Shown here in pieces: positions 53,726-59,094 of a stretch of 64,000 bases of DNA. Positions within the stretch are counted from its first letter, which is position 1, and the number at the start of each line of letters is the position of its first letter. This DNA is from an uncultured archaeon (GTDB lineage Archaea > Asgardarchaeota > Lokiarchaeia > Sigyniarchaeales > SOKP01): NCBI GenBank assembly GCA_964486045.1, contig CAZALK010000001.1:224001-288000 (forward strand), read 5' to 3'. Below the pieces are notes generated by a model that was not told where the DNA came from, ran no database searches, and saw only the letters and a program-made list of their open reading frames with translations. The translations under genes were made by a program, and so were the position numbers.

Positions 53726-54553
53726 GTGGTTCAAAATAGATATACAAGATTAAAAGCAATAAAAGAGTTTGGTTATGATATTACTTGGGATGATCTTAGA
53801 AAATATCATATTGGAATTGTCGGTATTGGAGGTCTTGGTTGTGTTTCAGCTGAAATGGCAGTAAGATGTGGTATAGGGAAATTATCATTATTCGATTTCG
53901 ACACCGTAGAAATTGTTAATTTAAACCGACATATGTTTAAAGAAGAACATATAGGGCAACCAAAAGTTGAAGTTGCTTTGAAGATCTTGAAAGAAATAAA
54001 TCCTGATGTAGAAATAAGAAGTTTTAATAAAGATATTATGGATCCTGACTTCGAATCTAAATTTGAATCTGAAATTAAACAGATGGATATCATTTTAAAT
54101 GGATTAGATAATATTCCCGCAAGAGAATATTTAAATGCCAAGTGTGTCCTATTCAAAATTCCATTCATAGACGCAGGAGCATCTAGAAGCGGTTTATCTG
54201 GTTATATTCATCCCATCATTCCATATAAGACAGCTTGTGCTAAATGTATAAGTAGTATAGCTATAGATATCCCGGATGAAAGAGGAGAACCATGTGTAGC
54301 GTCTTTACCATCAACAATGGCAATCTTGGCAAGCGTTCAAATTCAAGAAATGTTAAAATATCTTCTAAAGTTTGGAGAAATGATTGATTATCTCATGTAT
54401 GACATGATAACGGGGAAGTTTTTGAGCTACAAAACTTTGAGAGACGATAATTGTCCTATTTGCCGTACAAAATCTCAAAATAATAAAAAATTAGTGAAGC
54501 CTAAAATTTCACGAGGAGAAATAGATGATTTAATTGATAAACTCAAAGGATAA
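53726..54553 (+). CDS. uba5: UBA5-like E1 activating enzyme (ThiF family)
   Basis: RYTRLKAI, GIGGLG..SAEM..RCGIGKL.LFDFD.VE..NLNR, SGYIHPIIP..TACAKC, catalytic GEPCVASLPSTM, CPIC; probable GTG start 53726. Confidence 0.85.
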   Translation: MVQNRYTRLKAIKEFGYDITWDDLRKYHIGIVGIGGLGCVSAEMAVRCGIGKLSLFDFDTVEIVNLNRHMFKEEHIGQPKVEVALKILKEINPDVEIRSFNKDIMDPDFESKFESEIKQMDIILNGLDNIPAREYLNAKCVLFKIPFIDAGASRSGLSGYIHPIIPYKTACAKCISSIAIDIPDERGEPCVASLPSTMAILASVQIQEMLKYLLKFGEMIDYLMYDMITGKFLSYKTLRDDNCPICRTKSQNNKKLVKPKISRGEIDDLIDKLKG

Positions 54554-54606
54554 ACGGTGAAAGTCTAAATAAAAAAAAACATTACAAATTAAAATTCACA
54601 CCCTCT

Positions 54607-56142
54607 GTGGAAAAAATTGCGACTATAACCAGAAAGAATGAAAGAGAAATGGAAAAAATAAAATCTGATCAAAAGAAGGTTTTGAAGGAAATATTAGGGG
54701 AAAGATGGAAAAGTATTCCTCAAGTGAATGAAATTGAATTTCACCAATTCGGAGTTCAAATTAAGGATGGTGACATCATTGGTTTAGGATTACAGTACAA
54801 AAATTTAACGACTCTCCCGGAGTCGATAAGCAACATCTCCTCGCTCAAAACTCTAAAATTAGACTTTAATCAGTTAACGACCCTCCCGGATTCGATAGGA
54901 AACTTAAAAACACTTAAACAATTAAGTTTAGATGACAATCAGTTAACAACTCTCCCTGAGTCAATATCAAACCTAACATCACTCCAAGAATTATCTTTAC
55001 TTAGTAATCAGTTAACGACCCTCCCGGCGTCGATAGGCAACCTCTCCTCTCTCAAAATTCTATATTTAATTAATAATCAGTTAACGACTCTCCCGGAGTC
55101 AATAGGTAACCTAACATCGCTCCAATCACTATATTTGCGTGATAATCAGTTAACGACTCTCCCGGAGTCAATAGGTAACCTAACATCGCTCCAAACACTT
55201 GGTTTGGATTTCAATCAGTTAACAACTCTCCCGGAATCAATAGTCAACCTTCCTTCTCTCGAAGAACTATGGTTAGATGATAATCAGTTAACAACTCTCC
55301 CGGAGTCAATAGGCAAATTGAAATCGCTAAAATGGTTGGATTTATATGATAATCAGTTAACGACTCTCCCGGAGTCCATAACAAAACTCTCCTCACTTAA
55401 AAAATTTAACTTAGGTGTTAATAAGTTAACGACTCTCCCAGAGTCAATAGTCAACCTTCCTTCTCTAAAAGAACTATGGCTAGATGATAATCAGTTAACG
55501 ACTCTCCCGGAGTCAATAGATAACTTAAAATCACTTAAAAGATTGGACTTAGAAGGTAATCCGTTAAATCAGGAATTCAAAAAAATTATTAAAATGGCTA
55601 ATGGAGATATTCAACTTATTTTAAGAAAAATAAGAGAGATTTTTGAAAAAGAAAGGTTAATAGTAGAAAAAAAAGAAATGGAAAAAAGGTATAAAAGAGA
55701 GAGACCAATTATTGAAAAGTTAATTGAAGAAAAGAAATTTTCAGACGCTGTTTTGAAATTAAAAGATATTAAAAATACTGCCAAAAGATATAATTTAAGC
55801 GAAATAAATAGATGGACTATTAAAAAATTAGATTTATGTAATCAATTGGAAAGAGAAAAGTTAAAAATAGAGAAGATTGATAGAGTTAAAAAAGCAGTAT
55901 TTGACTTAGGAATAAAATTTGCCCGATTGCAAATTGCAGAAATTTCGGAAGTATGCGATATTGATGATGTACAATTAATTGTAGACATTGTAAAAGATAT
56001 GATTGATAATAAAGAAATTTATGCTCAATATTTTTCGAGCACTAAATCTGTTGCGTTTGATCAACAAGCAAATATTGATGAGATCGATAAACTAATGAGC
56101 ACCTATAAAGATTGGGAAGATAAAAAGATCGGAAAGAAATAA
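54607..56142 (+). CDS. LRR protein (11 x 23-aa repeats) with PCI-like winged helix plus helix
   Basis: LTTLPESIGNLxSL repeats; tail LGIKFARLQIAEISE...EIYAQYF...DQQANIDEIDKLMSTYKDWE. Confidence 0.9.
   Translation: MEKIATITRKNEREMEKIKSDQKKVLKEILGERWKSIPQVNEIEFHQFGVQIKDGDIIGLGLQYKNLTTLPESISNISSLKTLKLDFNQLTTLPDSIGNLKTLKQLSLDDNQLTTLPESISNLTSLQELSLLSNQLTTLPASIGNLSSLKILYLINNQLTTLPESIGNLTSLQSLYLRDNQLTTLPESIGNLTSLQTLGLDFNQLTTLPESIVNLPSLEELWLDDNQLTTLPESIGKLKSLKWLDLYDNQLTTLPESITKLSSLKKFNLGVNKLTTLPESIVNLPSLKELWLDDNQLTTLPESIDNLKSLKRLDLEGNPLNQEFKKIIKMANGDIQLILRKIREIFEKERLIVEKKEMEKRYKRERPIIEKLIEEKKFSDAVLKLKDIKNTAKRYNLSEINRWTIKKLDLCNQLEREKLKIEKIDRVKKAVFDLGIKFARLQIAEISEVCDIDDVQLIVDIVKDMIDNKEIYAQYFSSTKSVAFDQQANIDEIDKLMSTYKDWEDKKIGKK
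54805..55563 (+). repeat. 11 tandem 69-bp LRR-coding units
   Basis: Recurrent aatcagttaacgactctcccggagtcaata core at 69-nt period. Confidence 0.9.
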
Positions 56143-56232
56143 ATATTTAATAAGCAAATAAAATATTAAAAGGAACTCAAAAAATGAAGGGTGGGGTAGC
56201 ATTTTGATAGAAATATTAGAGAGTAATGGAAA

Positions 56233-58250: not shown

Positions 58251-58288
58251 TATTTATTTAAGGCAAAACTACAAAGGTTATAGATAAA

Positions 58289-58555
58289 ATGACATTAGAA
58301 TTAAATACCATATATTTTGTTAACAAATTTGGCTCAGAAAAAAAGCAAATCCCTTTTCCAATTGCTCCAAATATAAAATTGATGGATGTTATACCAGAAA
58401 TTTCAAAAAAATTTGGAATATCGTCACAGAATATATGTATAGCTAATATGGGTGGACAAGTTTTAACTTCTACAGATTTACTGAGCTCTGTTCGAGAATT
58501 AGTAGAAAAATTTGGAAACACATTTGATATTATAGATCGAGGTATTGTTGGTTGA
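58289..58555 (+). CDS. ufm1: UFM1-like ubiquitin-fold modifier
   Basis: 88-aa beta-grasp pattern; ends KFGNTFDIIDRGIVG, versus UFM1 KHGSELRIIPRDRVG (single terminal Gly, VG). Confidence 0.8.
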   Translation: MTLELNTIYFVNKFGSEKKQIPFPIAPNIKLMDVIPEISKKFGISSQNICIANMGGQVLTSTDLLSSVRELVEKFGNTFDIIDRGIVG

Positions 58556-59094
58556 GTATTACTAATAACCGCTGGCAGAGATCAATTCTTGACGAGATTA
58601 TCCAAGAATTTCCGGAAAAATGGAGTTCTATTGGCCCAAAACACCCTGCTTGGAAGGATCGTGTTAAATTAGAGATCGAAAAAATTATGCAATACATCAA
58701 TTTTCTAAGATCTACAAAAAATAGACCTTGGTTTAAATTATATCCTGAAAAAAATCCTCGCTATAATTATTTAGTATGGACAGGAAATTTACTCGTTCCC
58801 GAATATCCAGAAATTAATTTTGTTATTAAAGTACTCTTAACTTCTGAATATCCAAGAGTATGCCCCCGATGTTTTGCTGAAGAAAAAATTGTGGAGTATT
58901 GTGGAAAAATCTTTTTGAAAAATATCTGGGAACAAGAAGGTAAGAAATATGTAATGATATGCCATGAACACATGTCAAATACTCACGCATGGAAAGAGAA
59001 TCTTGGAATTGCTCACTTTTTTATACGACAAGTCTGGGTGTGGTGGGCTGCCCAACAAAATGTGATTATTAAAGAATATGATAAGAAAAAGTAA
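58552..59094 (+). CDS. ufc1: UFC1-like E2 conjugating enzyme
   Basis: GP...W.DR.K.E....QYI......WFKL, W.G, YP..CP, MICHEH (Cys137), LGIAH and W.A follow UFC1 motif order; TTG start overlaps the modifier stop. Confidence 0.85.
   Translation: MSITNNRWQRSILDEIIQEFPEKWSSIGPKHPAWKDRVKLEIEKIMQYINFLRSTKNRPWFKLYPEKNPRYNYLVWTGNLLVPEYPEINFVIKVLLTSEYPRVCPRCFAEEKIVEYCGKIFLKNIWEQEGKKYVMICHEHMSNTHAWKENLGIAHFFIRQVWVWWAAQQNVIIKEYDKKK

Follow-up and report, generated by a model that had tools for sequence, protein, structure and literature searches.

A Lokiarchaeial gene cluster that very probably encodes a UFM1-type conjugation system

A 64,000-nucleotide stretch of DNA from an uncultured archaeon (SOKP01, Sigyniarchaeales, Lokiarchaeia, Asgardarchaeota; assembly GCA_964486045.1, contig CAZALK010000001.1, forward-strand positions 224,001-288,000), hereafter the window, carries a gene cluster that very probably is an archaeal UFM1-type conjugation operon. 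All positions below are window coordinates unless a locus label (L..., G... or P...) is given. The cluster encodes an activating enzyme (E1), a JAMM metalloprotease, a small modifier (the tag) and a conjugating enzyme (E2), and it is proposed to be homologous to the UBA5-UFC1-UFM1 core of eukaryotic UFMylation, with the JAMM protease in place of UFSP and without a dedicated UFL1-type ligase. This reading is preferred because three independent components, the tag, the E2 and the E1, each pick the UFM1 branch. An earlier note, made from the sequence alone, had placed the three proteins in that branch rather than with ubiquitin, SAMP or MoeB/ThiF; the structure and profile comparisons with UBA5, UFM1 and UFC1 and the E1 and E2 trees that it proposed as checks all lead to the same placement. 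The gene positions it gave, the shared plus strand, the motifs it quoted for E1, modifier and E2, and the TTGA at 58552-58555 through which the modifier stop overlaps the E2 start are likewise present as described.

The E2 was compared with known conjugating enzymes by profile and by structure. A profile of 36 homologues matches UFC1 with an E value of 2.5e-6, versus 0.16 at best for canonical E2s, and hhalign aligns it with eukaryotic UFC1 at E 3e-11, compared with 0.13 for the canonical E2s of the same genome. The structure model (predicted local distance difference test score, pLDDT, of 90) has the UFC1 fold with an extra N-terminal helix. In Foldseek, 29 UFC1 entries rank ahead of other E2s (template-modelling, TM, scores of 0.61-0.67 versus 0.33-0.42), and in VIA UFC1 reaches a Z score of 16.8 versus 9.6 for the next match, with BubB at 7.7 and CdnG-E2 at 5.9. 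Residues Lys119, Cys137 and Trp164, which correspond to UFC1 K108, C116 and W145, are invariant across the 36 homologues, down to 47% identity. The protein lacks HPN, as the earlier note had said, and in the profile-profile alignment its CGK falls onto the T-x-K of eukaryotic UFC1. When 1.84 billion proteins were scanned, the identified matches were archaeal or eukaryotic UFC1. These results support the assignment of the E2 as UFC1-type, apart from canonical and bacterial E2s. E2 domains are also found in fusions (L055 9331-12024 (P0049), P0056, P0058 and P0077-P0086). Cys-less E2 domains are joined either to LRR or to SIR2-TPR together with a tag, and those of Hodarchaeales to a tag-like region at the N terminus; one further fusion combines an E2 with a zinc ribbon and a PCI-like tail.

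The tag ends with IIDRGIVG directly before the stop codon. In Foldseek, its model (pLDDT of 88) has UFM1 as the top match (TM scores of 0.79-0.83), with ubiquitin and SUMO at about 0.6-0.73. UFM1 is not among the cluster representatives of the wide VIA search; with VIA on Foldseek's chains it ranks top, the best 11 alignments all belonging to the UFM1 family (Z 13.7, versus 10.6 for the fold that follows; root-mean-square deviation 1.1-2.9, and 2.0 over 82 residues). Single-sequence searches of the PDB with the tag and the E2 gave no match, and profiles and models were required. Across homologues Gly88 does not vary and Val87 hardly does; Val ahead of the terminal Gly is, according to a review, unique to UFM1 among modifiers (PMC10952357). 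As modelled, the tag is a UFM1-fold modifier. A second UFM1-like small protein without the terminal Gly, ending in YYEKII or similar, is seen in many operon-less genomes of the genus (L246 4541-4825, L247 5066-5446 and L252 5194-5487).

For the E1, the segments GEPCVASLPSTM and RYTRLKAI align with CAASLPTTM and YSRLMALK of UBA5. The best PDB match is UBA5 (E 1e-46, versus 3e-31 for MoeB), and the NCBIfam scores are 124 for MoeB (cut-off 377), 121 for ThiF (275) and 92 for UbaA (450). Across homologues there is no variation at Cys190, at the ATP-binding residues or at four zinc Cys residues. In the E1 tree, which includes 18 eukaryotic UBA5s from metagenome contigs and 10 outgroup rows and is without bacterial UBA5-like sequences, a 97/91 branch separates the operon E1s (Asgard, Njord-type and Thermoplasmata) together with UBA5 from MoeB/ThiF and canonical E1s. 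The Asgard sequences make up a deep, diverse radiation, and eukaryotic UBA5 falls outside it as a clade of its own. In the free tree the eukaryotes join Thermoplasmata (91/81), not Asgard; an Asgard-plus-eukaryote clade is not rejected (p-AU, approximately unbiased test, 0.24). By its sequence, then, the protein is supported as a UBA5-clade minimal E1 and not a member of the MoeB/ThiF/UbaA family. The acidic C-terminal helix of the E1 resembles the UFC1-binding sequence of UBA5 and scores above 99.5% of 1500 control tails. Complex prediction gave 0.53 for E1 with E2, versus 0.00 for the best control, with 79% contact agreement between runs and partner pLDDT no lower than 79; of 80 solved complexes, 7 likewise scored 0.60 or lower, as did both passing mismatches, and passes at so low a score are frequently wrong. 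Since a comparable complex has already been solved, the prediction shows likeness only, and it weakly suggests that the two proteins pair.

The JAMM protein is predicted to be an active-type metalloprotease, since its motif residues E24, H82, H84, S93 and D96 are invariant in 28 homologues. Its best PDB match is the archaeal (Caldiarchaeum) Rpn11, and it carries a long C-terminal region of unassigned fold. The frame contains no ATG, GTG or TTG upstream of the catalytic Glu; translation probably starts at ATA 57039, six bases behind a GGTGA ribosome-binding motif. Were the gene called from ATG 57249 instead, the catalytic Glu would be lost. A non-AUG JAMM start (mostly ATA) behind GGTG(A), here at 57026-57041, seems to be used in many Lokiarchaeia (L031, L032, L034, L038, L042 and L044). 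Among the 34 loci with a whole E2 that form the synteny set, which are relatives and not independent, nine encode tag and E2 in one frame as a polyprotein that retains Gly at the Val-Gly junction, and in five others a short tail follows the Val-Gly of the tag. The polyproteins with their junction Gly imply the need for a protease and tie tag and E2 together genetically. In the window, a one-base difference splits this frame, and the E2 begins on the stop of the tag. Possible links of the JAMM protein did not rise above noise, either to UfSP2_N or to ODR4, for which Pfam ODR4-like matched 2 of 28 members with E 0.006 at best; a scan of 400 genomes with ODR4 returned one operon JAMM at E 0.07.

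The genes of the locus are listed in Table 1. The earlier note had described one gene cluster; the genes are indeed clustered and co-oriented, and two inserted genes, LRR-PCI and membrane-PCI (54607-56982), part E1 from JAMM in this genome. The two are adjacent in 26 of 30 loci, and a comparable LRR-type insert between them occurs only in the closest relative, L031. The four core genes hold up as cluster content, and the conserved unit is larger than had been claimed: three more conserved genes, for CDC48-N/zinc-ribbon, SPFH and ESCRT-II-like proteins, lie upstream of E1 (47805-52676). Within the synteny set, the tag is present in 33 loci, JAMM in 31, E1 in 30, the CDC48-N/zinc-ribbon protein in 28, the SPFH protein in 23 and the winged-helix protein in 16; of the four loci without E1, three stop where a contig ends and the fourth has a domain fusion. 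The clustering is not due to chance, because the same genes cluster in 34 loci of several Asgard families. These loci span Loki and Heimdall lineages and include complete chromosomes of Candidatus (Ca.) Lokiarchaeum ossiferum and two Heimdallarchaeum species. Eukaryotic contamination was ruled out by the 998-kb contig, the lack of introns and the homologues on complete Asgard chromosomes. GC content around the operon gives no sign of an island, and promoter and terminator scans of the locus stayed at shuffle level.

Table 1 Genes at the UFM1-type locus of the window
Feature	Position	Strand	Basis or remark
Winged-helix/coiled-coil protein, C-terminal ESCRT-II (EAP30/Vps22-36)-like tandem winged helix	47805..49199	+	Conserved accessory gene
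SPFH/Band-7 protein	49253..50116	+	Pfam Band_7 E 1e-11; conserved accessory gene
Lineage-specific insert, PCI-like tail	50202..51548	+	Pfam PCI E 3e-5
CDC48-N-like domain without ATPase, coiled coil, alpha/beta region, C4 zinc ribbon	51594..52676	+	hhalign; putative adaptor or E3-like factor
Small-GTPase-like protein, PCI-like tail; lineage-specific insert	52803..53690	+	Pfam Arf E 3e-4
UBA5-type minimal E1, Cys190, four zinc Cys, GTG start	53726..54553	+	PDB match, tree
LRR protein, PCI-like tail; insert between E1 and JAMM	54607..56142	+	Pfam LRR_8
Membrane protein, PCI-like tail, hydrophobic N-terminal half; insert between E1 and JAMM	56233..56982	+	Pfam PCI E 3.5e-5
Active-type JAMM/MPN+ metalloprotease (predicted), probable ATA start	57039..58250 (open frame 57033-58250)	+	Pfam Prok-JAB E 7e-8
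UFM1-like modifier, 88 amino acids, encoded mature, ends Val-Gly	58289..58555	+	Structure model
UFC1-like E2, catalytic Cys137, TTG start	58552..59094	+	Structure model, profiles
Membrane-TPR protein, PCI-like tail; flank, outside conserved core	59143..60627	+	Pfam TPR

The most conserved accessory gene encodes the CDC48-N-like protein (360 amino acids), which hhalign aligns with local CDC48 N-domains (E 7.5e-6, probability 84%, 137 columns) and in which four zinc-ribbon Cys residues are conserved; searches of Pfam, PDB and Atlas assigned it no family. For the winged-helix protein, Pfam EAP30 matches 5 of the 14 members with E 3e-4 at best (SNF8 E 0.14), and an EAP30 gene (E 8e-9) adjoins E2 in Heimdall loci. 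The best candidate for an adaptor or scaffold ligase is either this protein or the CDC48-N/zinc-ribbon protein. In Ca. Lokiarchaeum ossiferum (L049 5570-6964), a CDC48-N-like protein is fused to an EAP30-like winged-helix tail, and at L062 11462-13281 JAMM is followed by a coiled-coil gene (ESCRT-III-like by eye) and then a Vps4-like ATPase (Pfam AAA, Vps4_C). The insert at 50202..51548 is absent from the recurring neighbour families of related loci. All seven intact genes of the genome with a PCI-like tail are confined to a 16-kb region that surrounds the operon (45968-61478), with LRR, TPR, membrane and GTPase fronts, and adjacent arrays of PCI-tail genes surround the operon in six relatives as well. 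Although weighed as substrate receptors, these genes are left out of the core, being located elsewhere in four other operon genomes and present in operon-less genomes too.

A working pathway is inferred from the invariant catalytic residues and the conserved synteny. JAMM would cut after Val-Gly, freeing tag and E2 from the polyproteins and trimming the short tails at other loci; in the present genome, where the tag is encoded mature, it would mainly remove tags. By analogy with the chemistry of UBA5, the E1 would adenylate Gly88 and hold the tag as a thioester on Cys190. Its C-terminal helix may recruit the E2, the tag would move to Cys137, and the E2 would then pass it to lysines of target proteins. 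Judged by the accessory genes, the targets may be membrane-associated proteins that are handed to CDC48 or ESCRT machinery. Membrane-protein quality control is tentatively put forward as the likeliest role, given the CDC48-N/zinc-ribbon, SPFH and ESCRT-II-like genes.

Several observations weigh against the UFM1-type reading or narrow it. Sequence similarity between tag and UFM1 is weak (E 0.04-0.6), and outgroups are few in both the E1 and the E2 tree. A UFM1-interacting sequence (WGIEL-type) is found in 0 of 30 Asgard E1s, versus 14 of 24 eukaryotic UBA5s; only 10 of the 30 relatives' E1 tails exceed 95% of controls, and the helix is absent in 4 of 25. At the loci read, Thermoplasmata and Njord-type clusters show the four core genes only, with no match to any accessory profile in three Thermoplasmata loci, and the membrane partners are thus not universal. 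A UFL1/DDRGK-like frame of 806 amino acids lies on another contig; UFL1-like genes occur in 118 of 135 family genomes versus about 21 with the operon, and the protein was rejected as a dedicated ligase, its presence being independent of the operon. In the E2, Cys117 occupies the position of human UFC1 Thr106, so that CGK stands where TAK is expected, and a 10-residue hairpin is inserted ahead of Cys137. The description of the cascade as complete was an overstatement, with no dedicated E3, UFSP or substrate found, no UFM1-interacting sequence and a Cys at the T106 position. The cluster is not classed as a member of the UFMylation pathway, because it lacks the UFM1-interacting sequence and TAK and differs in protease and ligase. 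Substitution T106C lowers ufmylation by human UFC1 (PMC12032130), which fits an alternative in which the proteins are UFM1-branch homologues whose E2 transfers inefficiently, or whose relay stops at the E1 or at E2 self-modification. The hairpin near the active site, the Asgard paralogues without the Cys and the inserts that interrupt the operon in this genome point the same way. Such an impairment is nonetheless very unlikely, as Cys137, Lys119 and Trp164 are retained in every homologue, several relatives carry Thr at the Cys117 position and all frames are intact.

The preferred UFM1-type reading also has to be weighed against other functions and other histories. The same chemistry could serve anti-virus defence, the tag being put on viral or host proteins, as in the E1-E2-JAB systems Bil, Bub and CBASS. 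The E2 gene is patchy, in 37 of 400 Asgard genomes (cultured Lokiarchaeum ossiferum among them; a lower bound, since the E2 query missed a divergent Njord-type JAMM-E1-E2-tag cluster), and it occurs in 4 of 53 other genomes of the genus; variable LRR, TPR and membrane genes with PCI-like tails surround the operon here and in six relatives, and one fusion joins SIR2-TPR to E2 and tag. Bil/Bub and CBASS Cap2/Cap3 share the compact Ubl-E1-E2-JAB layout, the patchy occurrence and a homodimer-type E1, but their E2s are structurally distant (the Z scores given above) and the Bub E1 lacks the catalytic Cys (PMC11601596). PADLOC returned only generic ThiF-domain matches and none for tag or accessory genes, and did no better than E 0.007 for a bacterial-type E2, the recurring neighbours are SPFH, CDC48-N and EAP30-like genes rather than defence genes, and one Thermoplasmata copy adjoins the RNA polymerase operon, so that a defence function, the foremost rival, is considered unlikely. 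Acquisition of the archaeal operons from a eukaryote, or of the E1 by both groups from bacteria, would mean that the operon does not show the ancestral state. It would suit the patchy distribution, the presence in unrelated Thermoplasmata, the grouping of eukaryotes with these in the free E1 tree and the bacterial source inferred for UBA5 (PMC10183829), yet it is quite improbable in view of the separate eukaryotic clade, the unrejected Asgard-plus-eukaryote grouping and a motif scan of 185,579 species genomes that gave only Asgard or uncultured archaeal loci. The UBA5/UFC1/UFM1 trio is not known to be clustered in eukaryotes, which makes a three-gene transfer unlikely. That the cluster is a sulfur-carrier operon (ThiS/MoaD/SAMP), or an archaeal ubiquitin operon of the ordinary kind, with only superficial likeness to UFM1 is largely refuted and extremely improbable. 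The E1 does belong to Pfam ThiF, the best structural-database match of JAMM is Caldiarchaeum Rpn11, and the Caldiarchaeum ubiquitin operon also holds tag, E1, E2 and a tag-maturing JAMM; that operon, however, has a Gly-Gly tag, a canonical E2, a RING E3 and Rpn11 (PMC3082918, PMC6043591). Here the tag ends in VG and fits UFM1 best, the E1 scores far under the MoeB, ThiF and UbaA cut-offs, and besides the operon the genome contains a MoeB-like gene and canonical E1/E2 loci, which fall on the opposite side of both trees. With these loci present, the UFM1-type operon would be a parallel, accessory system.

Eukaryotic UFMylation comprises UFM1, UBA5 and UFC1, the proteases UFSP1/2 and UFL1-DDRGK1-CDK5RAP3, and modifies RPL26/uL24 by way of a thioester relay. 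The archaeal cluster shares with it a UFM1-fold tag ending in Val-Gly, a UBA5-clade minimal E1 with its Cys in a CxASLP(S/T)T loop, a UFC1-fold E2 with an N-terminal helix, no HPN and conserved oxyanion-site Lys and Trp, and an association with membrane quality-control genes. In contrast, it is operon-encoded, uses JAMM instead of C78 cysteine proteases and occurs as tag-E2 polyproteins in relatives; its E1 is without the UFM1-interacting sequence, its E2 has CGK for TAK and the hairpin, and CDC48-N, SPFH and ESCRT-II-like partners are found rather than a linked UFL1-type ligase. UFM1, UFC1 and UFSP2 have been regarded as eukaryote-only and UBA5 as probably bacterial in origin (PMC10183829), a distribution that led to a view of UFMylation as a mosaic assembled in eukaryotes. 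UFM1-like proteins have since been reported in Asgard archaea, in a study whose main text names no UFC1, UBA5 or operon (Kostlbacher et al., PMC12962969). The present tag is probably among those Ufm1 homologues. No paper on an archaeal UFC1 or UFM1-type operon was found in literature searches, which did not cover subscription journals.

The cluster suggests that the core of the UFM1 pathway is older than eukaryotes. Whereas the earlier study had moved only the tag to Asgard archaea, the occurrence of E1, E2 and tag in one operon indicates that the catalytic core was already a unit in archaea. It is possible, if somewhat doubtful, that this core arose in archaea as a membrane-quality-control operon that eukaryotes inherited from an Asgard ancestor, later exchanging JAMM for UFSP and taking on UFL1/DDRGK1 as ligase; ODR4 would then perhaps be an inactive relic of JAMM. 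The operon shows how the relay might run without the UFM1-interacting sequence, UFSP and UFL1, points to ancestral substrates, and constitutes a minimal system that could be rebuilt from four small proteins. Because cultured Ca. Lokiarchaeum ossiferum carries it, expression and targets are measurable; a search of the supplements for that organism turned up no proteomic evidence. A search of the present genome found no UFSP (C78) protease, with the search control also silent, and no linked RING gene is seen at the operon.

Further conjugation genes and divergent relatives were recorded. Another Asgard family has a divergent JAMM-E1-E2-tag cluster (L239 3426-6230, L241 and L242) whose tag ends in LLG plus a short tail. 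Two near-complete genomes (G276 and G260) contain E2 fragments only (L063 9731-9919 and L065), consistent with recent operon loss. In the genome of the window, two more clusters combine a tag, E1, E2 and JAMM, their E1/E2 being of other types (G000:C5:172904-175999 and G000:C2:173005-175324); one of the two tags ends in a single Gly. Finally, a uL24-like gene (G000:C15:118888-119319) encodes a lysine-containing C-terminal tail, which makes its product a candidate substrate only.

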